Shown here piece by piece: positions 3,587-31,600 of a DNA stretch of 32,000 nucleotides; position 1 is the stretch's first letter, and each line of letters opens with the position of its first letter. A model generated the notes under the pieces. The model ran no database searches, was not told the origin of the DNA, and saw only the letters and a program-made list of their open reading frames with translations. Source of the stretch: Thermofilum adornatum (GTDB lineage: Archaea; Thermoproteota; Thermoprotei; Thermofilales; Thermofilaceae); assembly GCF_000446015.1 (NCBI RefSeq), contig NC_022093.1, positions 1,710,001 through 1,742,000 of the forward strand. Direction: 5' to 3'. The position numbers and the translations under genes are program-made.

Positions 3587-3740
3587 AGAACAAGCTCGCC
3601 TTTTTTGGATACTTTCGGTTTTATCTTGGTGGAAGCTTAATAAGGACTATAATGTGGGGTAATATTGTGGAAAAAGAGGCTACCAAGAGAATGGGTTATC
3701 CTTTAAGAGATAAGGTGGATTTTTCCCGAGGGAACCAGGC

Positions 3741-5342: not shown

Positions 5343-5345
5343 GAC

Positions 5346-9939: not shown

Positions 9940-10135
9940 AGCCAGAAACTAGAATGGTTCTTAGAGATTCCTCATGCGCCACAACATCCAACCGTAATGA
10001 TTGAATATAACTCTAGAGGTAAACTATGTTTTACTATTAACTAATCCAGCTACTTCACAAACTTTCCTACGATTTGAAACAGTGCTTGGAAAGGGGAAGC
10101 TAACCTATTAGCTATTTAGCCTGTCAAGGCCACGT

Positions 10136-14683: not shown

Positions 14684-14689
14684 CTGGCT

Positions 14690-15655: not shown

Positions 15656-15656
15656 C

Positions 15657-16949: not shown

Positions 16950-17169
16950 GTGTTCTCCCCCTTGGGGGATGTAGTACAGCGATATGTAGGCTATATATGT
17001 CTTTGCCAAATATCTTCGCAGAAAATTGCAAAACAAAGGTAAGAATTTTGAAAAAAGTGTCAAGAACATCTTTGAATATGTGTAAAACTTACCATTAGAA
17101 TATGCATATCAGTAATGCTTATAAAAGAGCCCCTAAAATTGCCGATAAATATATTTAGCGAAACTTTAT

Positions 17170-18132
17170 TTAATACTCTCTTGATTTGGTCAATACGTTT
17201 AGAGGTTTTTCTCCTCTAAGGTATCTTGCTATGTTTTCTGCAGCGAACCTGAGGCATTTCTCCCTGGATTTCTTTGTCCATCCTGCCTTGTGGGGCGTAG
17301 CTATAACATTTGGGAGCCTGTGGACACCTATACTTGAGGGGTAGCCTTGGCTTGGCGGATAGGTCCACCATACGTCTATGCCTGCCCCGGCTATCCAGCC
17401 TTGTGTCAGGGCTTTGTATAATGCGTGTTCGTCTATAACGGGGCCCCGGCCTATGTTTATGATATAGGCTGTTTTCTTCATTGACTTTAGTTCTTCTTCT
17501 CCTATGAGGCCTCTCGTCTCTCGTGTCAGCGGGAGAGCTATTACTGCATAGTCTGCCTGGGAGAGAGCCTCTTTGAGCTTGTCTTGTCCGTAGCATTCGT
17601 CGCAGTACTCGTCTCTTTCTGGGTTCTTCTTGACAGCTACTACTTTCATGTTGAATGCCTTTGCTATCCTCGCTATCTCTCTGCCGATATTGCCGTATCC
17701 AACGATGGTTAGTGTTGAGCCTTCAAGGTCTAGTAAGAAGTTTTCCTCTGTGTAGCTTCTCCACTTGCCGTTCTTTACCTCGTAATCCTGCTCTACAATT
17801 TTCTTGGCAAGTGAAAGCATGAGTGCGAAGGCGTGCTCTGCTACTGCCCTGGCGTTACAGCCCTTGGCCGTGGCAACCATGACGTTTCTATCGAACAGGG
17901 CCTCTAGGTCTAAGTTGTCTGCGCCAGCCGCGGGAACCTGGACAAACTTAAGTTTTCCCGCTCTCTTGATTGCCTCCCTTGGCAAGGTAACAGCCATAGC
18001 TATGGACGAGTCTTCTAGGCCAGAAAAGTCGGCACCGCTCCAGTAGAGAATCTCGATTTTTCCGCCTAGAACGTCCTCAATTATCCTCTTTTCCCACTCG
18101 GCAAGCCTCAAATAAACAAACAACCTCTCCAC
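17170..18132 (-). CDS. D-isomer-specific 2-hydroxyacid dehydrogenase (NAD-binding)
   Basis: Rossmann motif VGYGNIGREIARIA, then NIGRGPVIDEHAL, DVWWTYP and TPHKAGWT (catalytic His region). GTG start. Confidence 0.88.
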   Translation of the reverse strand: MERLFVYLRLAEWEKRIIEDVLGGKIEILYWSGADFSGLEDSSIAMAVTLPREAIKRAGKLKFVQVPAAGADNLDLEALFDRNVMVATAKGCNARAVAEHAFALMLSLAKKIVEQDYEVKNGKWRSYTEENFLLDLEGSTLTIVGYGNIGREIARIAKAFNMKVVAVKKNPERDEYCDECYGQDKLKEALSQADYAVIALPLTRETRGLIGEEELKSMKKTAYIINIGRGPVIDEHALYKALTQGWIAGAGIDVWWTYPPSQGYPSSIGVHRLPNVIATPHKAGWTKKSREKCLRFAAENIARYLRGEKPLNVLTKSREY

Positions 18133-18298
18133 AAAAAAGGAATGTGTGATGCAGGGATAATAAAGTTACGCAAATCTATGGGAGAAAGGGGCGGCATGAA
18201 ATTTATATGTCTGTCTGCACATTTATATATTGATCCGGTAGGATCGCGCCTCGACTGCCCCGTATGTGGGCTGGATGAAAAGGCGCCCGGGAAAACAC

Positions 18299-18305
18299 AA
18301 AAAAA
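18299..18305 (-). terminator. T7 tract after the second binding-protein gene
   Basis: The minus strand reads TAA-ATTTC-TTTTTTT, 5 nt after the stop at 18311. Confidence 0.45.
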
Positions 18306-18310
18306 GAAAT

Positions 18311-19840
18311 TTATTTTTTGGGCTTTCTCCTAAGCAGTAAAACTGTAGCTAACACTATCACTAATACAATTATAGCCAGGACAATGTACAGAGTAAAGTC
18401 TTGTGCAGGCTGTTGTGGCTGAGCGGGTTTCGTGGGCTGTGTTGGCTGTTGTTGTGCTGGTTGTTGTGGCGGATACAGGTTGACCTCTACTGGGGGTGTA
18501 ACGCTTTTAACTGTGTCTATGTATTGTGGAGCAAACATTCCAATTTTGAGGAGGGGCTTGTAGAGGTCTGGTAGATCCTGCTCGGTATAGTATTTGGCAA
18601 GAGAGGTTGTATCCCACACTATTTGTGCAATATACATGTCCTGTACTGTTCTGTGGTCTTCTTTTCTTATCTTTATGTCTCCCTTCACAGATGTAAATGT
18701 GAGGCCTTCAAGCGCGTTGATTAGTTTTTCAGAGTCTGTTGAGCCGCCGGTCTTCTTTAATGCTAGTCCAAGCGCATGGCCAGCCACGAATCCCTCGCCG
18801 ACAAAAAGGTCTGGCAAGGGGAAGGCTATGAGGACTGAGCCCATCGTTGGAAGTGCTTTTTTCTTGTAGAGTTCAACATACTTTGAGACAAGCCAGTCGT
18901 TGACTGGGTTATTCTGTGGTAGGTTCCAAGCATACTTCATCATTCCCTTGTAGTTGGGCAGGTATAGGCCCATTTTTAATAGGTTCAGGGTTGCTAGGTC
19001 TGGTATGCCTGAGGTGACTTTCATCTTTTGGTAAACTCCTGAAGCGTTTATCTGTTGGTAGAGTGTTAGAGCTGTTGCTCCACTCCATACGGGAATGAAT
19101 ACCTCTGCCTTTGAGGCCAGGAGAGACTGGATGTAGGGCGTAAAGTCAGTGGTTGTTACGGGGGCATATATTGCGGCGACAACGCTTCCTCCTTTCTGTT
19201 GAATGATTGTTGACCAGGCATCGACAGTAGAGCGTCCCCAGGAGTTGCTCGGTGCTAGGAATGCAACTGTTTTGCCGAGGGTGGTGGCAAATGTTCCACC
19301 TGCAATTGCGTCGTGCCAAGTTGTACTTGAAATCTGGAAAACGTACCTGTTTAGGTAGGTCTTGGTTATCTCGTGGTCAGCGGCAGGGACAACCAAGAAT
19401 ACGACCTTGTATTTTTGGGCTATCTGTGTGAGGGCGATAGCTGACGGGCTGTCTGAACAGCCTACGAGTATCTCGGCTCCCTTGTTTTGTATCAAGTCCT
19501 CTGCTGCTTTTGTAGCTGTGGCTGGGTCTGGGATTTGCTGGCCGGCTGGAACATTGGTTGCCGCTATGATGTGTATTGTTTTGCCTTGCCAGTTAAGTTT
19601 CCATTCTAGGTTTGGCGTAACTGTCTCGAAGCTCGGTATCTCTAGCGCGTACATGAGTCCAAGAATGAAGCCGTTAATTGACATGTCGCCATAGTAGCTT
19701 AGTGCACCTGTCCTGTCGGTAACGATGCCTATAACGATTTCATTGGGGTTCTGGGCCTTGACGTTTATTGGTACAAAGGCTAGTGCTATTAGTGCTATCA
19801 AGAGGAGGGAGAGACTTTTAGCTCGTTCTTTTGTTGTCAT
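18311..19840 (-). CDS. LIV-type substrate-binding protein with signal peptide and C-terminal Q/P linker plus TM anchor
   Basis: N-terminal signal-like LSLLLIALIALAFVPINVKAQNP and a type-I PBP-sized body. The C-terminus is PPQQPAQQQPTQPTKPAQPQQPAQDF, then TLYIVLAIIVLVIVLATVLLL, then RRKPKK. Confidence 0.8.
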   Translation of the reverse strand: MTTKERAKSLSLLLIALIALAFVPINVKAQNPNEIVIGIVTDRTGALSYYGDMSINGFILGLMYALEIPSFETVTPNLEWKLNWQGKTIHIIAATNVPAGQQIPDPATATKAAEDLIQNKGAEILVGCSDSPSAIALTQIAQKYKVVFLVVPAADHEITKTYLNRYVFQISSTTWHDAIAGGTFATTLGKTVAFLAPSNSWGRSTVDAWSTIIQQKGGSVVAAIYAPVTTTDFTPYIQSLLASKAEVFIPVWSGATALTLYQQINASGVYQKMKVTSGIPDLATLNLLKMGLYLPNYKGMMKYAWNLPQNNPVNDWLVSKYVELYKKKALPTMGSVLIAFPLPDLFVGEGFVAGHALGLALKKTGGSTDSEKLINALEGLTFTSVKGDIKIRKEDHRTVQDMYIAQIVWDTTSLAKYYTEQDLPDLYKPLLKIGMFAPQYIDTVKSVTPPVEVNLYPPQQPAQQQPTQPTKPAQPQQPAQDFTLYIVLAIIVLVIVLATVLLLRRKPKK

Positions 19841-19877
19841 ACGGTTGTAATAATAATTTCTTATTCAATAAAAAAAG

Positions 19878-19884
19878 GGTTAAC
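19878..19884. promoter_or_regulatory. GGTTAAC half-site abutting the TATA-like tract of the binding-protein gene promoter
   Basis: The minus strand reads GTTAACC-CTTTTTTTATTGAATAAG.. with ATG at 19840, 38 nt from the motif end. Confidence 0.5.
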
Positions 19885-19910
19885 TACTATTTCTGGGCTC
19901 TATCTGCCTT

Positions 19911-20927
19911 TTATATCCAGCGGAAGATTGCGCTTGCCATGACGAAGCCTACTCCAGAAGTGATGAACTGTATGTAGTCTCCCTTCTTAATCTTGCCCTG
20001 TGTTAGAGTATCGTGTAGAGCCATGAATACGCAGGCAGATCCAGTGTATCCATATTTCTCCATGATGGTTGGGGCCTTCTCGATTGGCTGTCCAAGTAGC
20101 CTCATCAGCTGGTGGATCATCTCTCTGTTTACCTGTGTGACGAAGTAGTAGCTTATGTCGTTGGCTGTTAAATTTGCCTTTTTCTGTACCTCTTGTGCGA
20201 GTCCTGGCCAGTGGCGAAGGTTTATGTCGGGTGGATACCTTTTAAGGTACCTCAGCTTGTGCCATCCCTCCTTTACGACGTTCTCGTTTACTGGTCTTGC
20301 ACCCCCTATGTATATGCCCCAGTAGTCTGTATAACTACCATCCGCAATTATTTTTCCAGTAATGTAGCCAGGTTCACTTGATGGGCCAAGAATGACGGCT
20401 CCAGCTCCGTCAGAGAAAATGGAGGCAGTCACGTCTTGTGGGTCAATAAATTTGGTCATCGTGTAAGGTGAAACTACCAAGACATAGTTGACGTCTTCGT
20501 TGAGCATGATGTTCTGTGCCGCAAGCATGAGGGCTATTGTGTTGTCTGCACAGGCCGCGTTTATGTCGAAGCCTCCCGTTTTTAGTTTTGCGCCTAGCTT
20601 CTGGTGAACTGCACAAACTGTTGGTGGGGTCTGGAAGTCTGGGGTATCTGTTGCGAATATGATAAGGTCGATATCGTCTATAGTGAGGTTGGCGTTTTGA
20701 AGAGCCATTCTAGCGGCTTCTGCGGCTAGATCCGAGGGGGCCTGGTCTGGCGCAGAGACGTATCGGTGTTTGATGCCTATGCGGTTTTCTAGTGCATTTC
20801 TCCATGCATCGGGGAGCTTGAGACCAAAGAACTTTTCATAGTCATCGTTAGTTACTAGTGTTTTTCCAAGGGCTATGCCCGTGCTCACTATCCTGGCATA
20901 TTTTTTTATTTCAGGCTTCGTAGCCAT
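19911..20927 (-). CDS. KAS III (FabH)-like thiolase-fold enzyme with atypical catalytic residues
   Basis: FabH-like blocks ATDTPDFQTPPTVCAVHQKLG, FDINAACADNTIAL (active-site Cys retained), SDGAGAVILG and the C-terminal GVGFVMASAIFRW. The start is ATG 20927, or TTG 20930 as in the track. Confidence 0.75.
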   Translation of the reverse strand: MATKPEIKKYARIVSTGIALGKTLVTNDDYEKFFGLKLPDAWRNALENRIGIKHRYVSAPDQAPSDLAAEAARMALQNANLTIDDIDLIIFATDTPDFQTPPTVCAVHQKLGAKLKTGGFDINAACADNTIALMLAAQNIMLNEDVNYVLVVSPYTMTKFIDPQDVTASIFSDGAGAVILGPSSEPGYITGKIIADGSYTDYWGIYIGGARPVNENVVKEGWHKLRYLKRYPPDINLRHWPGLAQEVQKKANLTANDISYYFVTQVNREMIHQLMRLLGQPIEKAPTIMEKYGYTGSACVFMALHDTLTQGKIKKGDYIQFITSGVGFVMASAIFRWI

Positions 20928-20963
20928 CAAAATACTCTGGGAAAAATCCTATAAAATAAAAAC

Positions 20964-20970
20964 GGTTAAC
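20964..20970. promoter_or_regulatory. GGTTAAC half-site abutting the TATA-like tract of the KAS III-like gene promoter
   Basis: The minus strand reads GTTAACC-GTTTTTATTTTATAGG.. with ATG at 20927, 37 nt from the motif end. Confidence 0.5.
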
Positions 20971-20983
20971 TATTTCCCGAAAC

Positions 20984-22213
20984 CTAAAAGATGCTTTCGA
21001 TCTTTCTCTTGAGCTTCCAGCCTTTAAGCAACCATGTACCGTATATACCGTAAGGTAATGCCAGGACAACTATTATGTAGAGGAGTCCGAGAATAAAGCT
21101 GGGGAAGAGTTGCAGTTGTTGGAGTGACAGGAAGCCTAGTGATATGAGTGCTGGAGTTATCGTTGAAAGGTAGTCTCTAAGGAAGCCAGCAAGGATACCG
21201 CCAATAGCTGGTCCAACGAATGTGCCGAGACCACCCAGTATAGCACCAGTCATGGCAATGAAGGTCTTATCGGTTGCGAAGACGTCTGGCTGGATTGTAG
21301 GTATGCAGGCGACGTACACGCTTCCGGCTACCCCTGCAAAGACGCCTGAAATAAAGAAAGCTATTAACTGGTGGAGAAAAACGTTGTAGCCTATAACAGA
21401 TGCCCTTACCGGATTCTCCCTTATTGCTATAAATGTGCTTCCCAGAGGGGATGTGATGATTCTCTTAATCAACAGATATGATATGTAGAGGCTAAGGAGA
21501 GAGACTAGGTACACGTTAAGAGGATATACAAATCGCAGGATTCTTACATAAGGAAGACCTGAACCTACTTCATGGAGGAATGTTGCCGAGGAGCTAAAGA
21601 TTACGTACCCACTATAACCTAAGAAGATAAAGAGCAATAAGACAATCAGTGTTTTGAGAACTTTCTGGCGTTTCCGCTTTGTGCTAATGATGTCTATCAT
21701 CCCGGTCACAAGTGATAGAGCAAGAAATATTGTGAAGAGGGCGAGGTAGAGGTACAGCCCTTCAAGTGAAGCCATCTCAGGTATCGTACCTACCGTCACA
21801 GCAACAGTGGTTTGGGCAGAGTACTCAATAGTAGCTCTAATGGCTTCCGAAATAGCAAGCGTTAAGATACCATAGTACAGTCCCCTAACACGGTAGCCGG
21901 GAAGACCCATGCCGACATAAACAGCTCCCGAAATAAGTGCGGCGGGAATAAGAGATAGAAGGAACGGGACACCCTGCTTGAGAAGCACCGCCGTAATAAA
22001 GGCAGCAACACCGAATGGAACTGCGTGCCCGAAGCTTGGGATTCCCGCGAAACCCAAAACTATGTTGTAGCTTAGTGCAAGTAGAGCCCATACAAATGTC
22101 AGGGGAATGCCTGTAGCCAGTGACCTGTCTAGCCATGGAATGGCAAGGAGTATTGTTAAGGACAAGTATCCAAGAAACCTATTAGGCAACAAGTAGTTCC
22201 TTAGTTTCTCCAT
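20984..22213 (-). CDS. livM: LIV-type ABC transporter permease, LivM-like (long form)
   Basis: A polytopic membrane protein of 409 aa in the LivM position of operon 2. The conserved C-terminal half reads SPLGSTFIAIRENPVRASVIGYN... Confidence 0.85.
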   Translation of the reverse strand: MEKLRNYLLPNRFLGYLSLTILLAIPWLDRSLATGIPLTFVWALLALSYNIVLGFAGIPSFGHAVPFGVAAFITAVLLKQGVPFLLSLIPAALISGAVYVGMGLPGYRVRGLYYGILTLAISEAIRATIEYSAQTTVAVTVGTIPEMASLEGLYLYLALFTIFLALSLVTGMIDIISTKRKRQKVLKTLIVLLLFIFLGYSGYVIFSSSATFLHEVGSGLPYVRILRFVYPLNVYLVSLLSLYISYLLIKRIITSPLGSTFIAIRENPVRASVIGYNVFLHQLIAFFISGVFAGVAGSVYVACIPTIQPDVFATDKTFIAMTGAILGGLGTFVGPAIGGILAGFLRDYLSTITPALISLGFLSLQQLQLFPSFILGLLYIIVVLALPYGIYGTWLLKGWKLKRKIESIF

Positions 22214-22217
22214 TTTC

Positions 22218-23090
22218 TCACCTCTTGAATAATCCTTCTGGTTTAACCACTAGGACAACTATCATGACTATGAGATCTATCGCAAAGCCCAGTTGGGGTA
22301 TAAAGTAGGCTACAAGCCTGTCGACAAATCCTATCAGTAGACTCGCATAGAAGGCTCCCGAATAACTTTTCATGCCTCCTACCACGGGGATAGCGAATGC
22401 TAGAAGTGAAAAGTGGACAGGGAGCTCTATGGTTGCATGCGTCAGTGGAGCAACTAGTGCGCCACCCAGTAGTGCCAGGGCGACGCCAAATGTAAATGCA
22501 GACGTGAAGAGCATCGAGATATCTACACCGAAGACTGTAGCGAGCTCTCGGTTCTCTGTCCCCGCCCTAAGCTTTATACCAATCATGGTTTTTGAAAGAA
22601 GTGTACTCATGGTGCCGAATAGGACAAATCCAATCGCTATAAGAACAAACTTATAGATCCTTATCCTGACATCTGCTAGCTGTATATATCCTGACAACAA
22701 GAAGTTTTGAGTCTCCGGAAATACGAGCCCTGTTGGCCATATTAGTTGCATAAAGGTATACAATAGAGTCATTAGTCCCATGGTAAGTAGTAATTGTGCT
22801 AATGGATTCCCGTATACCGGCCGTATTATTGCTCTCTCGGTTAGAAGACCAAGGACTATCCCTATAAGAAAAGTTAACAATAGGCTCAACAGGAAGTTAT
22901 TCGTCATGTAATAAAACGTCACAAAGAGATATGCTCCTAGTCCAAAAAAGGCGCCCTGTGCTAGGTTAAAGACATCCATTAAGCCAAAAATAATCACAAG
23001 TCCTATGGCTGCAAGGTAGATCATTGATGAATAAGTCAACCCGTCTATAACTGCGCTTAGAATCAATTCAGGTGAAACCATATCCACCAC
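22218..23090 (-). CDS. livH: LIV-type ABC transporter permease, LivH-like
   Basis: A polytopic membrane protein of 290 aa with the FNLAQGAFFGLGAY block. It directly abuts the livF-like gene. Confidence 0.85.
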   Translation of the reverse strand: MVDMVSPELILSAVIDGLTYSSMIYLAAIGLVIIFGLMDVFNLAQGAFFGLGAYLFVTFYYMTNNFLLSLLLTFLIGIVLGLLTERAIIRPVYGNPLAQLLLTMGLMTLLYTFMQLIWPTGLVFPETQNFLLSGYIQLADVRIRIYKFVLIAIGFVLFGTMSTLLSKTMIGIKLRAGTENRELATVFGVDISMLFTSAFTFGVALALLGGALVAPLTHATIELPVHFSLLAFAIPVVGGMKSYSGAFYASLLIGFVDRLVAYFIPQLGFAIDLIVMIVVLVVKPEGLFKR

Positions 23091-23852
23091 CTATAAGCTT
23101 ACACCCAGGATTCTCCTTATTACATGATTGTTTTCTTCTATTTTTTCCGAGGGAAAACCTGTCACCACAACACCTTTATCCATCAGGTAAATGTAATCTG
23201 TTATTTCGCGGGCGTAAGCAAAGTTCTGTTCAATCAATAGTATTGTCTTCTTATTTTCAAGCATGTAGTGCCTCAGCTGCCTGTAGAAGTTTTTAACATA
23301 AGCTGGGCTTAGACCCTCAGATGGCTCATCTAGTATGAGAAGATCATGCTCCCTTACCAGTCCACATGCAAGTGCAAGCATTCTTTGCTGACCGCCGCTA
23401 AGTTCTCCTGCTAGGAGGCCAGAGAACCGTTTAAGCTCTGGGAAAAGATTCATTACCATTTCAAGCTTGTCGTCGAATTTTTCCTTTGGGCCATTATAGG
23501 CTAGCTTAAGGTTCTCAATGACGGTAAGGTTTGCAAATACATTTTTCTCTGCTGGGACAAAACTTATTCCCCTCTTGACTATGCTATGCGTTGGGAAATT
23601 AGTGATGTTCTCTCCTTTGAAAAACACTTCTCCCCTAGCTGCCTTATATATTCCCATTATTGTTTTTAGAGTTGTTGTTTTTCCCACGCCATTTCTACCT
23701 AGAATGGCCGTGAGCTTGTATTCTTCCGCTTCGAAGTTTACTCCTTGAAGTATATGGAAGCCGCCTATATATGCATGAAGATCCTTTACTTTCAGAATTG
23801 GAGACGCCACATCATTCACCCAGGTAGATTTTCTGAACCTCCCTATTCTCAA
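23091..23852 (-). CDS. livF: LIV-type ABC transporter ATP-binding protein, LivF-like
   Basis: Walker A GRNGVGKTT, signature LSGGQQRML, Walker B LILDEPSEGLSP. The start is uncertain: ATG 23852 gives a 41-nt overlap with livG, while in-frame GTGs at 23819 or 23810 give a short or no overlap. Confidence 0.88.
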   Translation of the reverse strand: MRIGRFRKSTWVNDVASPILKVKDLHAYIGGFHILQGVNFEAEEYKLTAILGRNGVGKTTTLKTIMGIYKAARGEVFFKGENITNFPTHSIVKRGISFVPAEKNVFANLTVIENLKLAYNGPKEKFDDKLEMVMNLFPELKRFSGLLAGELSGGQQRMLALACGLVREHDLLILDEPSEGLSPAYVKNFYRQLRHYMLENKKTILLIEQNFAYAREITDYIYLMDKGVVVTGFPSEKIEENNHVIRRILGVSL

Positions 23853-24564
23853 CTATCTCTTTGGGAGACCCTTCCGCGAGAATACTTCCCTGATTCATTA
23901 CGCTGACTTTGTCTGCTACTTCGAGAACAACATCTATTTTGTGCTCGATCACTACAACTGTTTTCTTCATTTCGTCTCTCAGCTTTTTAATGAGACGTAC
24001 AATTGGTGCTACCTCCTCTAGAGATACGCCGGCCGTGGGCTCATCTAATGCTATGAGCTTTGGGTTTCCAGCAAGGGCAATAGCGATTTCTAGTTTCCGT
24101 TTGTCGCCTGGGGTGAGGCTACTTGCCAAAATGTTTGTCTTGCCGTAGAGGCCAGTTATGGAGGCAATCCGCATGGCTTCCCAGACAACATCTTTGTAAT
24201 GGCTTGTTGGATGAATGAAGTCCCATCTCACGTTTTTCCATTTTGCTTGGACAGCAAGCCTTATGTTTTCGAGAACAGTAAGGTTTGGGAAAATCGAATA
24301 TATTTGGAAAGACCTTGTTAGACCCAGGGAGCTAATGTAGTGAGGGGGTTTACCAGTTATATCTCTGTCCTCAAAATACACTTTACCACTTGTAGGTTTG
24401 AGGACTCCAGTAATCAAGTTAAATAGCGTTGTTTTCCCAGCACCGTTGGGACCTATTATAGCATGAACCGTGCCCTGCGCCACCTTCAGGTTAACATTGC
24501 TGACAGCTACGAGTCCACCGAAGCTCTTTGTGAGATTTTCTGTGCGTAGAATTATGCCTGACAT
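23812..24564 (-). CDS. livG: LIV-type ABC transporter ATP-binding protein, LivG-like
   Basis: TKSFGGLVAV, Walker A GPNGAGKTT, Walker B LIALDEPTAGV and the C-terminal QKIYLGE. Confidence 0.9.
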   Translation of the reverse strand: MSGIILRTENLTKSFGGLVAVSNVNLKVAQGTVHAIIGPNGAGKTTLFNLITGVLKPTSGKVYFEDRDITGKPPHYISSLGLTRSFQIYSIFPNLTVLENIRLAVQAKWKNVRWDFIHPTSHYKDVVWEAMRIASITGLYGKTNILASSLTPGDKRKLEIAIALAGNPKLIALDEPTAGVSLEEVAPIVRLIKKLRDEMKKTVVVIEHKIDVVLEVADKVSVMNQGSILAEGSPKEIVENREVQKIYLGE

Positions 24565-24565
24565 G

Positions 24566-25345
24566 TTAGATGCCCCTGAAAAATTCTAGCAATAATTGGT
24601 TGTATTCTTCGGGTCTTTCCCTGTGGGGCATGTGTCCTACGCCTTTCATTATGTGCGCCTTTGAGGTAGGCACCATGGCGTGCATTTCTTCGACGACCTC
24701 TGGTGGGGATATGTAGTCTAGCTCTCCAGAAATGAAGAGAACAGGGTTCCTAAGTGATCTGATTATGTCTCTGTAGCTTTTTTCTGTCGCAGCTTCAGCG
24801 CTCTGTATGTAGACACGTTTATCAGTTCGTGAGATTATCTCATAGATTTCTCGTTTTAATTCGGTAGATGCGTATGGCGACACAGCGAACTCAGCTACTT
24901 GGCTGGCTATTTCATGCATAGACATGTTTTCAAGAACTTCTGTCATTGCTGGTGGGTATTCAGGTGCAATGGCTTCGAGGACAATCTTCTCAAATCTTTG
25001 TAGATACAAGCGGTAAAGCTCTAGCAGGACTAGGCCGCCCATTGAGTAGCCTACCATGAGCGCTTTCTCTATCTTTTCGGCTTCGAGGACGCTTTCTACG
25101 TCTCTAGCAAAATCCTCCATTGATATCCTTTTTGGGGGAATCTGGCTTTCGCCGTGCCCGCGAAGGTCTAGTGCTAATACCCTGTACCCCCTAGCTGGGA
25201 AGAACTCTAACTGGGGTTTCCATGTAAGATGGCTTTCGCCCAAGCCGTGTACGAAGATTATTGGTGTTCCATTTCCTTCAGCAACATAGTGTATCTTTAT
25301 ACCGTCTTTTGATTTTGCATACCTGTGCTCTAATCCCTGCGACAT
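24566..25345 (-). CDS. alpha/beta-fold hydrolase
   Basis: HGLGES oxyanion region, nucleophile elbow GYSMGG, then a late Asp (GELDYI) and His (GVGHMP). 1-nt gap to livG. Confidence 0.85.
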   Translation of the reverse strand: MSQGLEHRYAKSKDGIKIHYVAEGNGTPIIFVHGLGESHLTWKPQLEFFPARGYRVLALDLRGHGESQIPPKRISMEDFARDVESVLEAEKIEKALMVGYSMGGLVLLELYRLYLQRFEKIVLEAIAPEYPPAMTEVLENMSMHEIASQVAEFAVSPYASTELKREIYEIISRTDKRVYIQSAEAATEKSYRDIIRSLRNPVLFISGELDYISPPEVVEEMHAMVPTSKAHIMKGVGHMPHRERPEEYNQLLLEFFRGI

Positions 25346-25347
25346 TT

Positions 25348-26145
25348 TTATTTCACCTCTCCCTTAAGAAAATTCGACACCAGTACATTAATTTCGCCCG
25401 GTTTTTCCCAAATAGAGACATGCCCACTTTCAACTTCAGCATATTTTCCATTGGGAAGCTCCTCAACTATCAACTTGGAGTATCTAGGCGGGAAGAATCT
25501 GTCATGAGTGCTGGCAACAACAAGAGTTGGCATTGTTAGTTTGGAGAGCTTTCCCCTCAGATCGAGCCTAAGAAAAGCTTTAATCATCTCTTCGAATGCT
25601 ACCATGTCTACAAGCTCGAAGTTAGGTGCCAAAGAAGAAATAAAGGAGAAACTGTTATTGATGAACTCGTCTGAGAATATGTCCGGAATCATTACTTGCC
25701 ACAGGAATCTACCTGACTTAAGCCGTGCCGCCAAAATCCACCTGTCGGCACGCAGTCTCAAGGCCTTGTCTACGGTGTGCGACGAATTTAGAATTACGAG
25801 TTTTTCGACTTGCTCGGAGAAGGCTAGCGCAGTAGCCAATGCTACTTTTCCGCCATAAGAGATGCCTGCAAGCGTAAAAGTGTTAATGCCCAAGTAATCT
25901 AACAGTTCCTTCAAGTCAGAAACATGTCTATCAATACTATAACCTGTCCTCGGCTTATCACTTTGTCCCTGACCACGCATATCATGTAGAACTACCTTAT
26001 AGCCTAGGTTCCTCAGATATTCTGCTTGAAGCCTCCATCCTACAGTATTCATCGTTATGCCATTGAGTAGCACTACCGTCTTTTCCCCTTCACCTTCGAC
26101 CTCGTAATAGATCTTTATACCGTCCGTTGTAGTGAAATACGCCAT
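25348..26145 (-). CDS. alpha/beta-fold hydrolase (distant tandem paralogue)
   Basis: Nucleophile elbow GISYGG, Asp region STHDRF, His region ESGHVS. It shares the N-terminal DGIKI(H/Y)Y block with its neighbour. Confidence 0.85.
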   Translation of the reverse strand: MAYFTTTDGIKIYYEVEGEGEKTVVLLNGITMNTVGWRLQAEYLRNLGYKVVLHDMRGQGQSDKPRTGYSIDRHVSDLKELLDYLGINTFTLAGISYGGKVALATALAFSEQVEKLVILNSSHTVDKALRLRADRWILAARLKSGRFLWQVMIPDIFSDEFINNSFSFISSLAPNFELVDMVAFEEMIKAFLRLDLRGKLSKLTMPTLVVASTHDRFFPPRYSKLIVEELPNGKYAEVESGHVSIWEKPGEINVLVSNFLKGEVK

Positions 26146-26150
26146 GGATC

Positions 26151-27722
26151 CTACACCTCTAACTTGTCTTCAGGTTTTCCATAAAGGATTTTAAGAGGCT
26201 GGCGAGCCACCTTCCCAGTCTCCGTGTAGACAAGTTGGGGAACAACTTCTACATACTTTGGTATTTTGTATTTCGCGAGCTTGTCTTTCAAGAAATCTAT
26301 GACTTCTTCTTTCGTTATCTTTTCTCCCTCCTTAAGTACAATCAATGCCTTTGGAACCTCCCCCCACTTGGGGTCAGGGACTCCTATAACCACTGCATCC
26401 TTAATCTTTGGATGCATAATCAAAAGCCTCTCAATTTCTTCTGGATACACGCTCTCTTCACCACTCCTAATGATGTTCTTAATTCTCCCAGCTATCCAGA
26501 AATAGCCTTCCTCATCTACCCTAGCAACGTCTCCCGTAGCCAGCCATCCATCCTTTATAATAGACTTCATCTCTTCCTCGTTTTTCAGGTATCCTGAAAA
26601 CACGCTTGGACCCCTTAGGTACAGCTCGCCCTCAACACCTCTGGGAGCCTCACTTCCATCTGGAAGAACAACCCTGGCCTCTATCAATAGGTTCGGTTTC
26701 CCAATCGACCCCATTTTCCTCTTAGCGTCCCATGGATCGAGAGCAAAAATACCTGGACCCATCTCGGTCATCCCAAAACCTTGTTTCTGGACAACACCCT
26801 TCTCAAATATTTTCTCGATGATGTCTGGCGTTAACGCTCCCCCGCCGCTTGTAAACCACCTAACGGATGAAAAGTCTGCGTCCTTGAAACGGGGCGAAGC
26901 AAGCAACATCCTAAGTTGCGTCGGAACCAGGAAGAGAAATGTTGGTCTCTCCTCTTCTACGAGGTCAATAAACCTATCAACATTCCATCTTCGCATTAGA
27001 ATACTTGTCCCTCCAAACATTAATAGAGGGATTAGATATGTGAAGGCACCAATGTGGAAGAGAGGTAACGTGTTGATTGTGACGTCGCCAGGTATAACCA
27101 AGTCCCTAACAGTGTTCAAGGCGTTCCAGAGAATCATCCTGTGACTTACTATTGTAAATTTTGGCTTTCCAGTTGTTCCACCAGTTTGTAGTATTAGGGC
27201 GGGGTCTTCGAGGCAACACGCCGTCGAGACATCATTGGAAGAGTATTTCTCATAATTAAACTCGTTTGGACAGTCATAGCACACTTTCTTCGTCTCTATG
27301 TTAGAGACGGTTTCTGAAAATTCTTTTTCATATAGGAGAACTTTTGGATTGACTTTATCAACAAACTCTTGAATTTCACGTGAAGTGTACCTCGTGTTTA
27401 TAGGAGCTAGGACACAGCCAATCTTGAAACATGCAAGAAGCGTGGCAACAAACTCTATGCGGCTCCACGAAAGAATAGCTACATAATCTCCCTTGCTTAT
27501 TCCGAAATTTTCCCGAAGAAAATTAGCAATCTTGTTGGACATCTCGTTTAGCTGTGCAAAGGACACCGTACGTAAGGGTATCGTTAGGTCGTCCTTGAGT
27601 GCTATCCAATTACCACTTATATCTGCTCTACGAGCTATCCAGTTGTTGACCCATTTTCCACACGTATAGATTCTCTCCAGAGACATATAATGCATGTTAA
27701 TAGGTGAAATCGTGTTATACAT
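26151..27722 (-). CDS. AMP-forming acyl-CoA synthetase/ligase (ANL superfamily)
   Basis: AMP-binding motifs TGGTTGKPK, GFGMTE, WLATGDV and GRIKNIIRSGEESVYPEEIE. The start is ambiguous between Met1, Met10 and Met13 (see findings). Confidence 0.9.
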   Translation of the reverse strand: MYNTISPINMHYMSLERIYTCGKWVNNWIARRADISGNWIALKDDLTIPLRTVSFAQLNEMSNKIANFLRENFGISKGDYVAILSWSRIEFVATLLACFKIGCVLAPINTRYTSREIQEFVDKVNPKVLLYEKEFSETVSNIETKKVCYDCPNEFNYEKYSSNDVSTACCLEDPALILQTGGTTGKPKFTIVSHRMILWNALNTVRDLVIPGDVTINTLPLFHIGAFTYLIPLLMFGGTSILMRRWNVDRFIDLVEEERPTFLFLVPTQLRMLLASPRFKDADFSSVRWFTSGGGALTPDIIEKIFEKGVVQKQGFGMTEMGPGIFALDPWDAKRKMGSIGKPNLLIEARVVLPDGSEAPRGVEGELYLRGPSVFSGYLKNEEEMKSIIKDGWLATGDVARVDEEGYFWIAGRIKNIIRSGEESVYPEEIERLLIMHPKIKDAVVIGVPDPKWGEVPKALIVLKEGEKITKEEVIDFLKDKLAKYKIPKYVEVVPQLVYTETGKVARQPLKILYGKPEDKLEV

Positions 27723-27726
27723 TTTA

Positions 27727-27743
27727 GGTTAACATTGTTAACC
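27727..27743. promoter_or_regulatory. perfect 17-bp palindromic operator candidate GGTTAACATTGTTAACC
   Basis: 7-3-7 inverted repeat in the divergent spacer between the acyl-CoA synthetase operon and the HTH_10 regulator gene. A near-identical copy lies at 30853..30868. Confidence 0.65.
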
Positions 27744-27880
27744 TTTGACATAATATTAATGACCGGGGTGCCATTCTTATCGTTGCTACAAGGATATTTC
27801 CTTCTCAACGATTAAAAGGTATCTCTTTTTCTATAGTTTTTACGACAGTAGGCTACATTATAAAAACACACTACAGAAAA

Positions 27881-27888
27881 TTTAAATA
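27881..27888 (+). promoter_or_regulatory. TATA-box candidate for the regulator gene
   Basis: TTTAAATA lies 29 nt upstream of ATG 27917. Confidence 0.45.
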
Positions 27889-27916
27889 GTTGTTTTCGTA
27901 ATATTTTGCATGGATA

Positions 27917-28651
27917 ATGATGTACATTGGAGTGTTCGACATTGAGCAATATGATTGCCCCGTTGTTAAATTGACCGAGAAAAGAGAAGGCGTTACAACA
28001 ACAGTTCTATCAGTAAATGTATCTGAACTTTCAAGGGGAGTAGAGCAGATCTTTTTAACAATTAAGAGTTCCGAGCAGGACAAGCTTAAGGACATTCTAG
28101 AAGTCGCGCAAACAATTCCCGAAGTAAAGAACTGTAAAGTACTTGGGAAGTCTGACGATGCATGGAGAATACTCATGAACATTAAAAAGACACATACAAT
28201 GGAGGCTAGTGTAAATCTTGGTGCAATGTTTGTTTCTCCGTGGATTGCGAGAAGCGGCGTTGAGAGGTGGACCCTAGGCTTCATAAGTAAGAAACAGTTC
28301 TACGATTTTCTGTCTTTGATCAGGGAAAGAGACCATGTAAAGAAATACTACTTGACAGAGGTAAAGGAGGAGGACTTTGTAACTGTTTCTGCAAACTATC
28401 TATCTATACTTAAATTGGTTTCGCAACTGAACAAGCTGACCCCCAATCAGCTGAACATGTTAAAGCTGGCTTTGTCTAAGGGATATTATTCGTGGCCGAA
28501 GGGGGTTGATAGCGTTGAACTATCAAGAATGCTAGGCGTTTCTCGTGTGAGTATAATTAAGTCGCTTAGGAAAGCTGAATACAAGGTGCTAGGTCCCGTT
28601 GTAGAATTTGTGTCAATGGTTAAGAAAGATTGGGAGAAAAACTACACTTAA
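27917..28651 (+). CDS. HTH_10 (bacterio-opsin-activator-type) transcription regulator
   Basis: The C-terminal LTPNQLNMLKLALSKGYYSWPKGVDSVELSRMLGVSRVSIIKSLRKAEYKVL matches the HTH_10 pattern LTxrQrevLxxAyexGYFexPRxxxxxeLAexLGisxstxxehLRrAexKl. The N-terminal ~165 aa are unassigned. Confidence 0.75.
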   Translation: MMYIGVFDIEQYDCPVVKLTEKREGVTTTVLSVNVSELSRGVEQIFLTIKSSEQDKLKDILEVAQTIPEVKNCKVLGKSDDAWRILMNIKKTHTMEASVNLGAMFVSPWIARSGVERWTLGFISKKQFYDFLSLIRERDHVKKYYLTEVKEEDFVTVSANYLSILKLVSQLNKLTPNQLNMLKLALSKGYYSWPKGVDSVELSRMLGVSRVSIIKSLRKAEYKVLGPVVEFVSMVKKDWEKNYT

Positions 28652-28655
28652 ATAA

Positions 28656-28669
28656 TTTTTTTATTTTTT
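28656..28669 (+). terminator. oligo-T tract after the regulator gene
   Basis: T7 (28656-28662) and T6 (28664-28669) begin 5 nt after the TAA stop. Confidence 0.5.
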
Positions 28670-28671
28670 CT

Positions 28672-29646
28672 CTAAGCCAGTGGAGATGCAATAGTGGTTC
28701 CTAGGTCTATGGGTATCACTATTCCTGTGAGTGCCTCGTTTTCCACCACGTGGTATGCCAATTTAGCAATTTCTTCCGGCTCGACGAGTCTCGCTATTGG
28801 AATCCTCCTTAAGTATTCTTGGAGGATCGGTGAAGGCACTGCGAGAGCCATCCTAGTCTTGGCGAATCCTGGAGCTATAGCTACGACTCTGATACCGTAG
28901 GGGGCAAGCTCCTTTGCAAGCGTCTTAGTGAGACCTATGAGTCCCGCCTTAGAAGCCGCATAATTTGCCTGGGCAATGTTTCCAAGCAATCCTACAATTG
29001 ACGAAATATTGATGATTACTCCCCCGCCGTTCCTTTTCATTATTGGGAAAACAGCTTTTGAGCATAGGAAAGCTCCCTTTAGATTCACATTTAATACGCT
29101 GTCCCAGTCTTCGTCCTTCATTCTCTCTAGATAAGTGTCACGTGTTATGCCAGCATTGTTTACCAATACATCGATCCGGCCGGCCAGCCGTAAAGCCTCT
29201 GATATGCCCTTAGAAACACTCTCACTCTTGCTGACGTCCATCTCTACGAAGTATGCCTCTACACCTAGGTTCTTTATAGCTTCGAGAGTTTTTTCTGCTT
29301 CCTGATCTCTCACTATATCCGCAATGACGACGTTGTAACCGTGCCGAGCAAACTCTAGTGATATTGCCGCTCCTATGCCTCTGCTTCCCCCGGTAACAAG
29401 GACGACTTTTCTTGGCTGATCGACACGCGGGATAAATACTGGGATTTTGCCGAAGACTGTCAATTCTTCTGTGAGTTCTCCTTCAGCTCCCTCCTTTACA
29501 AGCCCCATGTATTTTTGAGGTATTCTCGCGATTCTTTTTTCTCCATTTCCATTCTCAACTATGGCGACGATGTACGTAGACTTGTAGGGCTCTACAGGGG
29601 TCAGCAATTCGGTAAATATTCTTACTTTCCACGCCATTCCCTTCAC
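28672..29646 (-). CDS. fusion protein: DUF35-like OB-fold domain + FabG-type short-chain dehydrogenase/reductase (3-oxoacyl reductase-like)
   Basis: The C-terminal 245 aa form a classical SDR: TGGSRGIG, NNAG and the S..YAASK triad. The N-terminal ~78 aa (AWKVRIFTELLTPVEPYKSTYIVAIVENGNGEKRIARIPQ..GELTEELTVFGKIPVFIP) look like the OB-fold half of DUF35/acyl-CoA-associated proteins, without the Zn ribbon. GTGA start/stop overlap with the thiolase gene. Confidence 0.75.
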   Translation of the reverse strand: MKGMAWKVRIFTELLTPVEPYKSTYIVAIVENGNGEKRIARIPQKYMGLVKEGAEGELTEELTVFGKIPVFIPRVDQPRKVVLVTGGSRGIGAAISLEFARHGYNVVIADIVRDQEAEKTLEAIKNLGVEAYFVEMDVSKSESVSKGISEALRLAGRIDVLVNNAGITRDTYLERMKDEDWDSVLNVNLKGAFLCSKAVFPIMKRNGGGVIINISSIVGLLGNIAQANYAASKAGLIGLTKTLAKELAPYGIRVVAIAPGFAKTRMALAVPSPILQEYLRRIPIARLVEPEEIAKLAYHVVENEALTGIVIPIDLGTTIASPLA

Positions 29647-30818
29647 CTCTCAAAAACGATAACTACTGAAGTTGCCCCAGTCCCACCATGATTCTCAACT
29701 AAGCCTCTTTCTGCATCTTTCACTTGCCTGGCCCCGGCCTCACCCCTTAGCTGCCAGTATACCTCTGCGACCATGCCTACACCCGTTGCACCAATGGGGT
29801 GTCCCTTAGCCTTCAACCCACCACTTGGGTTTACTGGCTTAGATCCTGTGAATGCTGTTACCCCGTCCCTAATCAGCTTGTAGCCTTCGCCTCTCTGTGC
29901 AAGCCCAAGCATCTCGTAGAGAATTATCTCAGCGATTGTAAAGGCGTCGTGGACTTCGAAAAGGTCTATCTTTTCTGGGCCATATCCACTCATCTTGTAA
30001 GCTTCTTGGGCGGCTTGCCTGGCCGCCTCGATAGCTGACATGTCTTTTCTTTGGTAGACCCCTGAATAATCATGCTTCATAGCTATGCCGCTGATGTAGA
30101 CGGGTGTATCAGTATACTTTTTAGGCTCCGAGCTCATGAGAAGGGCTACGGCCCCATCGGAGAGTGGCGAGGCATCAAATAGTTTTAGGGGCGGTGATAT
30201 GTATGGAGACTTCAAGACGTCTTCAACTGTGATCTTCTTCTGAAACTGGGCGAGCGGGTTTCTTGTAGCGTTTTCATGGTTCTTTACGGCGACCAAGGCT
30301 AGGTCCTCTTCCTTTGCCCCGTAGCGGTTCATGTATTCTCTAGCTATTAAAGCATAGAGGCTTAGAAATGGAGCCCCCACTTTGTACTCTTCTGGCGCAC
30401 TTGTACGCATCAAGATCTCATTCGACTTTGCAGACGTCCCCACAGTGCTCATTTTTTCAAAGCCAACAATCAGGGCGTTTTTAAAGAAGCCAGCACTGAG
30501 AAGCTTGTGTGCAAGATAAACAGCTGTTGTACCAGCTGCACAGGCATTTTCAACCCTGAAGCCCGTAGCGTTTAGGTTCCCAATGTAGCTTGCTACAAGG
30601 GGGGCTGTATGCAGTAAGCCCCCGAAGGAGTCACTGTAGTTGGAGACTATGATTAGGTCTATTTCCTGCGGAGAAATCCCCTTCTCAACGCTTTTCAGGG
30701 CTCCCTCGACAGCTTCACGTATCATTTCGTGTGTCTCCTTTTGACTCCTGGCCTCATACTTTGTGCTATAGGCTCCTACAACGCCTATTCTACCGTTTTG
30801 GGGCGTTAGTGTCACCAA
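29643..30818 (-). CDS. thiolase-like acetyl/acyl-CoA C-acyltransferase (archaeal SCP-x/DUF35-associated type)
   Basis: Thiolase blocks RVENACAAGTTAVYLA (nucleophilic Cys), GHPIGATGVGM and NHGGTGAT. TTG 30818 or GTG 30815 start. Confidence 0.85.
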   Translation of the reverse strand: MVTLTPQNGRIGVVGAYSTKYEARSQKETHEMIREAVEGALKSVEKGISPQEIDLIIVSNYSDSFGGLLHTAPLVASYIGNLNATGFRVENACAAGTTAVYLAHKLLSAGFFKNALIVGFEKMSTVGTSAKSNEILMRTSAPEEYKVGAPFLSLYALIAREYMNRYGAKEEDLALVAVKNHENATRNPLAQFQKKITVEDVLKSPYISPPLKLFDASPLSDGAVALLMSSEPKKYTDTPVYISGIAMKHDYSGVYQRKDMSAIEAARQAAQEAYKMSGYGPEKIDLFEVHDAFTIAEIILYEMLGLAQRGEGYKLIRDGVTAFTGSKPVNPSGGLKAKGHPIGATGVGMVAEVYWQLRGEAGARQVKDAERGLVENHGGTGATSVVIVFER

Positions 30819-30852
30819 ATAGGAAATTTCAACACTTGCCTAAAAGCGGAGA

Positions 30853-30868
30853 GGTTAACATTGTTACC
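30853..30868. promoter_or_regulatory. second copy of the operator candidate (GGTTAACATTGTTACC)
   Basis: Identical to 27727..27743 except for one missing A in the right arm. It lies 35-38 nt upstream of the thiolase start and is followed on the minus strand by TCTCCGCTTTTAGG. Confidence 0.6.
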
Positions 30869-30881
30869 TAGATAGAAATAG

Positions 30882-30887
30882 AAAAAA
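30882..30887 (-). terminator. T6 tract directly after the secreted-enzyme gene stop
   Basis: The minus strand reads TAA-TTTTTT immediately after the stop at 30888. Confidence 0.45.
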
Positions 30888-31502
30888 TTAGAAGCCCAGG
30901 TCGCTTAGCCAGAGGGTGTATACATCTGAATCAGCCACTATTTCTCCTGGAAGAACGCCGTACCAGTTTTGCGGCAACCAGTAGTACGCGTCGATATCGA
31001 CGCCTGTCGTAGCCTTGTATGCCGCCCAGACAAGCTCAGAGCAGTAATAGGATGGGCCATATACTTGTTTGTAGTATCCGTTATAGTCGTATGTATAGCC
31101 AAGCTTGGAGTACGCCCAGTTGGCGGCACTTAGGGCTTGTGAGTCTGTCACGCCTTTGACCCTCAGAATTATGACAGCACTATAACGGGACATGAATTCG
31201 CTTAGAGTGTTTATTCTTACACCCTCGAATAGTGCCTCTACAACCAGCCAGTCGCCAATTGTTGGATCATATTTGTATAAAATGCCCGCATGGGACCAGT
31301 AGCCCACTATGGTATATTCCTGTCCAGGGTAATGACCAATTACGATGTCGCCTGGTCTAAGCGAGACGTTTGGATAGGGGTGCACGAAGTAGCCGTATGG
31401 GTGATAACTGTCGCTCGAGGAAGCCTGGAGCACAGGCATAGTAAAAGCCAGGAAAAACAGTAGCATGAAAAATGGTGCTGTGAATTGTTTCTTTTTTATC
31501 AT
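30888..31502 (-). CDS. secreted permuted papain-fold (NlpC/P60 superfamily, YiiX/YaeF-like) enzyme
   Basis: N-terminal signal-like FTAPFFMLLFFLAFTMPVLQASS. Block order is GDIVIGH.., then WSHAGILY (His), VVEALFEGV and YDYNGYY, and finally YYCSELVWAAY (Cys). His before Cys is the circular permutation of the YiiX/YaeF family. Confidence 0.6.
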   Translation of the reverse strand: MIKKKQFTAPFFMLLFFLAFTMPVLQASSSDSYHPYGYFVHPYPNVSLRPGDIVIGHYPGQEYTIVGYWSHAGILYKYDPTIGDWLVVEALFEGVRINTLSEFMSRYSAVIILRVKGVTDSQALSAANWAYSKLGYTYDYNGYYKQVYGPSYYCSELVWAAYKATTGVDIDAYYWLPQNWYGVLPGEIVADSDVYTLWLSDLGF

Positions 31503-31554: not shown

Positions 31555-31600
31555 TATATTACAAAGCAAATAAAAATGTTATCCCAAATAACTTAAACTG

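Follow-up and report, generated by a model that had tools for sequence, protein, structure and literature searches.

To our knowledge, an operator has been defined for few archaeal transcription factors, and activators are especially rare among them. In the Sulfolobales, the Ara-box (AACATGTT) is required for activation by XylR (Saci_2116), which is encoded nearby (PMC7264815), and in the saci_2122 promoter, whose mRNA is leaderless (PMC11627041), 41 nt separate the end of the Ara-box from the ATG. FadR_Sa of S. acidocaldarius is a TetR-family repressor that recognizes a 16-bp dyad motif at a few sites, one of them intragenic, in a 30-kb cluster of esterase, ligase and thiolase genes (PMC6449355). 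In the Thermococcales, TrmBL1/Tgr binds the TGM motif, activating from upstream of the transcription factor B recognition element (BRE) and TATA box and repressing from downstream (PMC4706686). Here we describe a hexamer, GTTAAC, which forms the palindrome GTTAAC-N3-GTTAAC where it is doubled, and which recurs in a gene cluster for acyl-CoA metabolism within a 32,000-nucleotide stretch of Thermofilum adornatum DNA (RefSeq assembly GCF_000446015.1, contig NC_022093.1, positions 1,710,001 to 1,742,000; "the window" below). Among the described systems, the Ara-box and XylR are the closest match in sequence and architecture, and FadR_Sa is the closest functional analogue. With moderate confidence, we read the hexamers as the cis-acting sites of a local regulon that would be recognized by the adjacent HTH_10 regulator and would most likely activate transcription.

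The locus resembles the FadR_Sa system in having, within one cluster, genes for esterases, acyl-CoA synthetase and thiolase together with that of a local regulator, which presumably controls them alone. However, FadR_Sa belongs to the TetR family, whereas Pfam assigns only an HTH_10 domain, together with HVO_2525_N, to the Thermofilum regulator. The motif is also different, and FadR_Sa sites occupy variable positions, including positions downstream of a transcription start site (TSS), and serve autoregulation, whereas the sites described here keep a fixed place upstream of both BRE and TATA-like box and are missing from the regulator promoter. The likeness to TrmBL1/Tgr lies in a palindrome with a variable centre and in activation from a site that lies upstream of both BRE and TATA box (PMC4706686). 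TrmBL1/Tgr differs in being a TrmB-family protein that recognizes TATCAC-N5-GTGATA and governs a global regulon for sugar metabolism, with many sites downstream of the TATA box.

A palindromic hexamer recurs between the genes of one cluster

The first-pass annotation of the window had reported a perfect palindrome, GGTTAACATTGTTAACC, at 27727-27743 and a near-identical copy with one base missing, GGTTAACATTGTTACC, at 30853-30868. Both were recovered exactly, in coordinates as well as in sequence, and the distance of 35-38 nt annotated between the copy and the thiolase start (TTG 30818 or GTG 30815) is likewise correct. The first site extends further, to 27726-27744, where AGGTTAACA-T-TGTTAACCT forms a perfect 9-1-9 palindrome of 19 bp. 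A single palindrome with 7-bp arms had been judged to be at chance level, and dinucleotide shuffles agree (22 found against 20.4 ± 5.5). The recurrence of this particular sequence had been judged to exceed chance, and it does so clearly, with 5 strand-matches at up to 3 mismatches against 0.03 expected. The exact 14-mer is present twice in the window, and the similarity between the copies is limited to 14-17 nt.

The half-site GGTTAAC occurs 6 times in the window and the hexamer GTTAAC 11 times. Six of these 11 hexamers lie in non-coding DNA, which makes up ~8-10% of the window and would be expected to hold about one from base composition; by intergenic enrichment in the window, GTTAAC ranks first of the 64 six-bp palindromes. 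All six intergenic copies fall between 19.8 and 31.6 kb, inside the gene cluster, and stand directly upstream of minus-strand genes. Intergenic GTTAAC is absent upstream of all ~20 other genes of the window, and likewise from the flanks of L028, one of the related loci used for comparison (labelled L with a number throughout).

Three further candidates were set aside. One, a third partial copy (24489-24505), is part of an ABC ATPase gene, where it encodes the conserved peptide VSNVNL, and its DNA is unconserved even in the closest relative, so that it was attributed to chance. The GGATAACATTTTTA match at 31571-31584 was likewise attributed to chance because it is not conserved in L001. The seemingly intergenic GTTAAC at 1237 falls inside a small open reading frame (ORF) of 74 aa.

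The hexamers hold a fixed position relative to the predicted core promoters

The regulator protein of the window is 100% identical to an entry of T. adornatum. Since this species is a crenarchaeon, its promoters are to be read as archaeal BRE/TATA promoters. The TATA, BRE, TSS and leaderless assignments used here were inferred from sequence and conservation, and BRE strength was judged by a rule taken from Sulfolobus. Five promoters in the window carry the hexamer, namely those of the ligase/ABC operon, the thiolase-SDR pair, the KAS-III-like gene, the substrate-binding-protein gene and the C92 amidase gene (Table 1). On the gene strand they share one layout, in which GTTAAC(C) is followed by 6-8 nt, a T/A-rich TATA-like box and, ~25-35 nt after the box, the start codon. 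Counted from the starts of these mostly leaderless genes, the proximal hexamer is predicted at ~-37 to -43 and the distal hexamer at ~-46 to -52. The locus thus combines two features of archaeal upstream transcription-factor sites, a short conserved (semi-)palindromic motif over-represented against chance, and its presence at several functionally related promoters in a consistent position relative to the BRE and the putative TATA box.

On the gene strand, the ligase promoter reads GTTAAC-AAT-GTTAACC-TAAAA-TGTATAAC. The ORF caller had picked an ATG at 27722, which falls inside the predicted TATA-like box. We place the probable ligase start at the ATG at 27686 because orthologue alignments begin at residues 12-13; the called orthologues have 497-511 aa. 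The thiolase promoter reads GGTAAC-AAT-GTTAACC-TCTCCG-CTTTTAGG and continues for ~25 nt to the TTG or GTG start, a distance that fits a leaderless mRNA. Its proximal hexamer is kept in six of the eight aligned Thermofilaceae (alignment A2), L026 and L030 having GTTACC, and in all eight the distal arm is either imperfect or a variant. At the C92 promoter, the site is kept as GTTAACC, GTTAGCC or GTTTACC in 9 orthologous loci.

A sixth site lies outside the window, at about window coordinate 35.6 kb, and was found in L023, a locus of the same species, as GTTATA-ATT-GTTAACC followed by TTTTTTTAGA (17650-17680, site at 17662). Its counterpart in L028 reads GTTATC-CCT-GTTAACC and is followed by a T-rich box (17665-17700, site at 17678). 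This site sits upstream of a two-gene operon for an ADP-forming acyl-CoA synthetase (ACD). The link between the ligase/importer operon and the thiolase-reductase operon that had been drawn from two copies is thereby supported and widened, with the site at both operons, at three more promoters of the window and at one outside it. The promoter of the regulator gene itself, with its conserved AGAAAA-TTTAAATA, carries no hexamer in the window or in any relative, and autoregulation was therefore rejected as a reading.

A possible weaker seventh site was noticed at 10019-10035, upstream of a protoglobin-like ORF (9385-9939). On the minus gene strand it reads GTAAAAC-ATA-GTTTACC, followed by 7 nt (tctagag) and TTATATTC, and it has the same geometry of hexamer-C, 7 nt and TATA-like box as the regulon promoters.

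The sites and their setting are conserved across orders

We compared the window with syntenic loci of Thermofilum and Infirmifilum, drawn from genomes and from metagenomes; the regulators there are 67-83% identical. All sites of the window (the ligase double site and those of the thiolase, KAS-III, substrate-binding-protein and C92 promoters) are present at orthologous positions in these Thermofilaceae. In the promoter alignments (A2 and A3), the hexamers and the TATA-like boxes form conserved islands, and the upstream flank cannot be aligned. When six other non-redundant Thermofilaceae loci were pooled, 19 of 39 GTTAAC copies fell in the 7.8% of DNA that is non-coding (P ~1e-11). The centre of the palindrome varies among relatives (AAT, ATT, GTT, ACT, AGT). 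The ligase-promoter site appears in orthologues as GTTAAC-N3-GTTAAC or as GCTAAC-N2-GTTAGC. The latter, found in L025 and L027, is a mirror-image covariation of the arms, in which the inverted symmetry is kept and the arms are no longer self-complementary.

In L003, L007, L025 and L027, an extra hydrolase gene or several kb separate the ligase gene from the regulator gene, and the palindrome remains at the ligase promoter. It follows the ligase across these insertions and is therefore an element of that promoter rather than of the regulator gene. The first-pass annotation had placed the site next to the regulator gene; the site belongs to the ligase promoter.

A second, distant set comprised 28 loci from Desulfurococcales-type metagenome-assembled genomes, with regulators 36-47% identical. 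In all 28, the regulator gene lies directly upstream of the thiolase-SDR pair and downstream of ABC-ATPase, KAS-III and hydrolase genes, and the orientation of the thiolase-SDR pair relative to the regulator is inverted compared with the Thermofilaceae. The thiolase promoters in this set carry a related element (for example ATAAAC-ATT-GTTTACC, GTAAAC-ACA-GATAACC, GGTAATC-ACA-GGTAACC, GTTAAG-CTCT-GTTAACC), followed in each case by 6-7 nt and a TATA-like box, and the KAS-III promoters carry single GTAAAC or GTTAAC hexamers. L010, L011 and L013 have an additional GTTAACC ~45 nt upstream of the AAACATTGTTTACC element at the thiolase promoter, perhaps making three hexamers.

We regard it as very probable, from sequence comparison, that the palindrome and the half-sites are cis-regulatory sites for protein binding. 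The earlier proposal of an operator for a dimeric factor is borne out as far as it concerns a conserved sequence of the protein-binding type, but the strict model of one dimer on one palindrome is unproven, with a half-site alone at three promoters.

That the element has no regulatory function at all, being a chance repeat, a DNA or RNA hairpin (terminator or cruciform) or the remnant of a mobile element, is very improbable: site 1 can form an 8-bp hairpin in single-stranded DNA (-5.4 kcal/mol, z = -3.3) and site 2 lies 20 nt past the C92 stop codon, but site 2 folds no better than shuffled sequences (z = -0.7) and an Rfam search gave 0 hits, which argues against an intrinsic terminator or structured RNA, the flanks of the copies are unrelated, unlike those of a dispersed repeat, and more than 10 genomes keep both the sequence and its place with respect to the TATA-like boxes, with 0.03 matches expected by chance.

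The neighbouring HTH_10 protein is the candidate regulator

The HTH_10 protein had already been proposed as the factor that reads the palindrome. No other transcription-factor gene lies in the cluster, and the linkage of the HTH_10 gene to its proposed target genes is kept in relatives as distant as 36-47% identity, so that its candidacy is strengthened. Its HTH_10 domain scores 52.2 bits against a cutoff of 23.1, and PF24279 is precomputed for the regulator and all its relatives, which places it among the HTH_10 regulators of the HVO_2525_N subfamily. The subfamily is small, with 8 cluster representatives at E<=1e-30 in an exhaustive search, within the large HTH_10 superfamily. The AlphaFold (AF2) model (predicted local distance difference test, pLDDT, 86) consists of two beta-alpha-beta-beta-alpha-beta units, resembling tandem ACT domains, and a C-terminal helix-turn-helix (HTH) similar to those of LuxR and sigma-4 domains, joined by a flexible linker (pLDDT ~71). 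Foldseek returned partial relatives only, namely Ta1207, the ACT-like regulatory subunit of acetohydroxyacid synthase, LuxR-type domains and sigma-4 domains. No solved structure related by sequence to the regulator was found, and NCBIfam holds no matching model. A literature search found no paper on HVO_2525-type regulators or on regulation in Thermofilum, nor a published operator for any HVO_2525_N-domain protein or crenarchaeal HTH_10/HVO_2525_N protein.

The regulator shares a C-terminal HTH_10 domain, with structural matches to LuxR-type and sigma-4 domains, with Bat and other haloarchaeal HTH_10 proteins and with LuxR/NarL-type proteins. Bat activates from an upstream site, and NarL-type proteins recognize units of 6-7 bp that may be inverted, direct or single, which would fit the mixed arrangements of hexamers seen here. 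The N-terminal sensors differ, with GAF/PAS domains in Bat, a receiver domain in NarL and tandem ACT-like units in the Thermofilum regulator.

We consider that the neighbouring regulator probably binds the sites. The main evidence, which is circumstantial, is that element and regulator co-occur across orders. An alternative is that the hexamer is a promoter-class element read not by this regulator but by a transcription factor encoded elsewhere, or by a paralogue of transcription factor B (TFB) or a TFB-associated factor. Its fixed distance to the TATA-like box does resemble an extended core-promoter element, three promoters manage with a single hexamer, and a non-palindromic hexamer upstream of the BRE, the UV-box, governs UV-inducible promoters in S. 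acidocaldarius (PMC5817253). However, the element is missing from the promoters of the other genes of the window and from the flanks of L028; it accompanies the regulator gene across orders, in every case at the neighbours of the regulator; and the double sites, with their dyad symmetry and mirror-image covariation, suit a dimeric transcription factor dedicated to them. Such a promoter-class element is quite improbable.

Activation and repression

The proposed mechanism takes one GTTAAC hexamer, mostly extended by C, as the recognition unit, placed ~7 nt upstream of a TATA-like box and just upstream of the BRE. At three promoters, a second hexamer 9 bp further upstream completes the palindrome GTTAAC-N3-GTTAAC. 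One sigma-4/LuxR-like HTH would occupy each hexamer, with a dimer at the double sites, and the tandem beta-alpha-beta-beta-alpha-beta domains would probably sense a small-molecule effector. An HTH that reads one hexamer and is flexibly tethered to the sensor and dimerization module could explain why single hexamers would suffice, why spacers of 2 nt and of 3 nt both occur and why some repeats look direct. The bound regulator would most likely help TFB and the TATA-binding protein onto promoters with mostly weak BREs, that is, activate them. In this reading the regulon would serve to take up an acyl or ester substrate, activate it with CoA and convert it at the thiolase/reductase level, with ATP recovered through the ADP-forming acyl-CoA synthetase.

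Archaeal sites that lie upstream of BRE and TATA box are as a rule activating and those downstream repressing, as TrmBL1 shows (PMC4706686). In Sulfolobus, activator boxes, the Ara-box included, lie upstream of weak BREs, a strong BRE having A at -3 and R at -6 (PMC5817253). By this rule, the BREs are poor at five of the six target promoters (thiolase, C92, KAS-III, substrate-binding protein and ACD), and the hexamer-free promoter of the regulator has a canonical one. The hexamers abut the BRE without overlapping it, the spacing is fixed, the proximal hexamer is the better kept and the BREs are poor, which together favour activation. Judged by promoter layout, net activation appears about evenly poised, repression seems somewhat unlikely, and a dual mode is unlikely.

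Several observations weigh against a simple activator bound as a dimer. The ligase promoter has a good, A-rich BRE, and near its predicted TSS lies a third element that resembles the hexamer (27696-27701, gene-strand sequence ATTAAC), which may be a repressive site. In relatives, the TSS-proximal element is a perfect GTTAAC in L028 and L003 and GGTAAC in L007, and it is absent in L025, L027 and L029. At the thiolase promoter, a block that runs from the TATA-like box towards the start (30822-30845, TTTAGGCAnnTGTTGA) is invariant in 8 Thermofilaceae relatives and far better conserved than the matching zone of the ligase promoter; its position is of the repressor type. As to stoichiometry, three promoters have a single hexamer alone, and the two hexamers of some distant relatives resemble direct repeats instead of inverted ones. 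Finally, no change in the recognition helix was found that matches the clade-specific variants of the hexamer.

Most of these observations bear on the strongest alternative, in which the same HTH_10 regulator at the same sites would be a repressor in the manner of FadR_Sa, blocking TFB or RNA polymerase by binding beside or over the BRE and at the extra hexamer near the ligase TSS until an acyl-CoA-type effector releases it. FadR_Sa itself represses a lipid and fatty-acid cluster and is released by acyl-CoA (PMC6449355), the element near the ligase TSS and the invariant thiolase block occupy classical repressor positions, and the BRE of the ligase promoter is good and A-rich. Yet every conserved hexamer stops 6-8 nt short of the TATA-like box on its upstream side, without overlapping it, strict spacing with a better-conserved promoter-proximal hexamer is typical of activator sites, the target BREs are mostly poor, and the TSS-proximal hexamer is not kept in three of the relatives. 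We hold such a repressor to be unlikely, and the activating reading is the one that we prefer.

Relation to the Ara-box of the Sulfolobales

The saci_2122 promoter, reconstructed from published mutagenesis primers, reads ACG-TTTAACATGTTAAA-ATAAATAC... and contains a perfect palindrome of 14 bp with the core TTAAC-AT-GTTAA. This core, within TTTAACA.TGTTAAA, is nearly identical to the core GTTAAC-AAT-GTTAAC of the window and to GCTAAC-AT-GTTAGC in L027. The window cores AACATTGTT and AACAATGTT are one base longer than the Ara-box, L027 has the exact AACATGTT within GCTAACATGTTAGC, and the Ara-box flanks TTTAACATGTTAAA extend the similarity. The architecture is likewise shared. Both systems have a short palindromic box in the same zone upstream of the core promoter, several mostly leaderless genes, co-regulated or predicted to be so, that include an ABC importer, and a regulator that is encoded nearby and whose own gene is not controlled through the box. 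They differ in the central spacer, which is 2 nt in the Ara-box and 3 nt in T. adornatum (2 nt in L025 and L027), and in the targets, which are genes for the uptake and breakdown of pentoses in the Sulfolobales and acyl-CoA and lipid genes here. Since the target genes differ, the Thermofilum locus does not belong to the Ara regulon.

The publications on XylR assign it to no protein family, and it could be compared only by its primer-derived termini (MMHVYKVEL..., ...KILSQLFINSQA), which resemble those of typical HTH_10 proteins, a hint and not a demonstration of homology. The termini had no match among 232 retrieved proteins, including the 150 best hits of an exhaustive profile search, and a chimeric retrieval query for XylR returned DPANN HTH_10 proteins only. 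A tentative and rather doubtful idea is that the HVO_2525_N/HTH_10 regulators of the Thermofilaceae and Desulfurococcales and XylR form one crenarchaeal activator family that reads (G)TTAAC-N2-3-GTTAA(C) upstream of the BRE, its members being wired through the tandem ACT-like sensor to different catabolic modules, pentoses in one case and scavenging or fermentation of acyl or ester (possibly 3-hydroxyacyl) compounds in the other. If it were true, the Thermoproteota would have a general and portable architecture of activator and upstream activating sequence, the link would relate a broader family of regulators to an expression tool in wide use in Sulfolobus, and it would aid the prediction of inducible promoters in uncultured Thermoproteota. 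If it were false, the present result would be a routine regulon prediction by comparative genomics.

The predicted regulon and its surroundings

Thermofilum is a genus known for its dependence on external lipids. The predicted regulon would cover import by the Liv-type ABC system with its binding protein, ester hydrolysis by the alpha/beta hydrolases and the C92 enzyme, CoA activation, thiolase/SDR chemistry and substrate-level ATP formation (Table 1), and it makes a compact, testable system with one regulator, six promoters, a recognition unit of 6 bp and a fixed geometry. The genes of the ligase operon abut or overlap each other, and the thiolase-SDR pair adjoins the regulator gene in every relative examined. 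The ACD operon beyond the window encodes a beta subunit (ATP-grasp_5) and an alpha subunit (CoA-binding/Succ_CoA_lig). Neither an acyl-CoA dehydrogenase nor an enoyl-CoA hydratase is encoded in 17170-31502 or in the L023 gene set. Speculatively, the gene set fits a route for the fermentation of 3-hydroxyacids or oligo-esters rather than full beta-oxidation. Both hydrolases show weak similarity, below cutoff, to polyhydroxyalkanoate depolymerase (NF050089).

Table 1. Predicted regulatory elements and target genes in the window (BRE, TATA-like and operator roles are putative)
Feature	Coordinates	Strand	Details
Candidate full operator, ligase-operon promoter	27726..27744		hexamers 27728-27733 (promoter-proximal) and 27737-27742 (distal); kept in orthologues
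TATA-like box, ligase promoter (TGTATAAC on gene strand)	27714..27721	-	preceded by A-rich TAAAA; conserved in orthologues (A3); putative role
Probable true acyl-CoA synthetase start	27684..27686	-	codon 13 of the mechanical ORF; gives 511 aa
Candidate thiolase-SDR operator	30853..30868		proximal GTTAAC 30854-30859 perfect; distal arm GTTACC 30863-30868, one base short
TATA-like box, thiolase promoter (CTTTTAGG on gene strand)	30839..30846	-	7 nt after hexamer and C; TTTAGG invariant in 8 relatives
Single hexamer GTTAACC, KAS-III-like gene	20964..20970	-	8 nt before TTTTATAG (20949-20956); kept in L024, L028 and L029
Single hexamer GTTAACC, substrate-binding-protein gene	19878..19884	-	followed by T-rich box TTTTATTG; kept in L024 and L028
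GGTTAACC, divergent spacer between C92 amidase gene (-) and 589-aa esterase gene (+)	31547..31554		on C92 strand, 7 nt before CTTTTATT
Candidate regulator, 244 aa, HVO_2525_N (PF24279) and HTH_10 (PF04967)	27917..28651	+	Pfam, AF2 model
Predicted target operon 1: acyl-CoA synthetase, two alpha/beta hydrolases, two ABC ATPases, two Liv-type permeases	20984..27686	-	Pfam, NCBIfam
Predicted target operon 2: thiolase and SDR (3-oxoacyl reductase / 3-hydroxyacyl dehydrogenase type)	28672..30818	-	Pfam, NCBIfam
Predicted target 3: KAS-III-like gene	19911-20930	-	own hexamer promoter
Predicted target 4: periplasmic binding-protein gene	18311-19840	-	own hexamer promoter
Predicted target 5: permuted papain-like enzyme (Peptidase_C92, YiiX/YaeF-type)	30888..31502	-	Pfam

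Beside the regulon, a second complete Liv-type ABC transporter set (12171-17069, minus strand) and a 2-hydroxyacid dehydrogenase gene (17170-18132) were found, and the spacers upstream of both have no GTTAAC hexamer. Two tandem protoglobin-like genes occupy 9385-10717, and ~25 nt past the stop codon of the one at 10136-10717 (minus strand) lies a 6-4-6 palindrome, AGCTAACCTATTAGCT (10098-10113). Further away, the window contains a NurA-HerA-Mre11-Rad50 operon for DNA-end resection (2044-9022, plus strand) and a peroxiredoxin gene (547-1206). From their translations alone, the small ORFs at 1224-1934 (minus strand) resemble an MNT-like nucleotidyltransferase (74 aa), whose 3' end holds the GTTAAC copy at 1237, and a HEPN-like partner, and they are likely a toxin-antitoxin pair.

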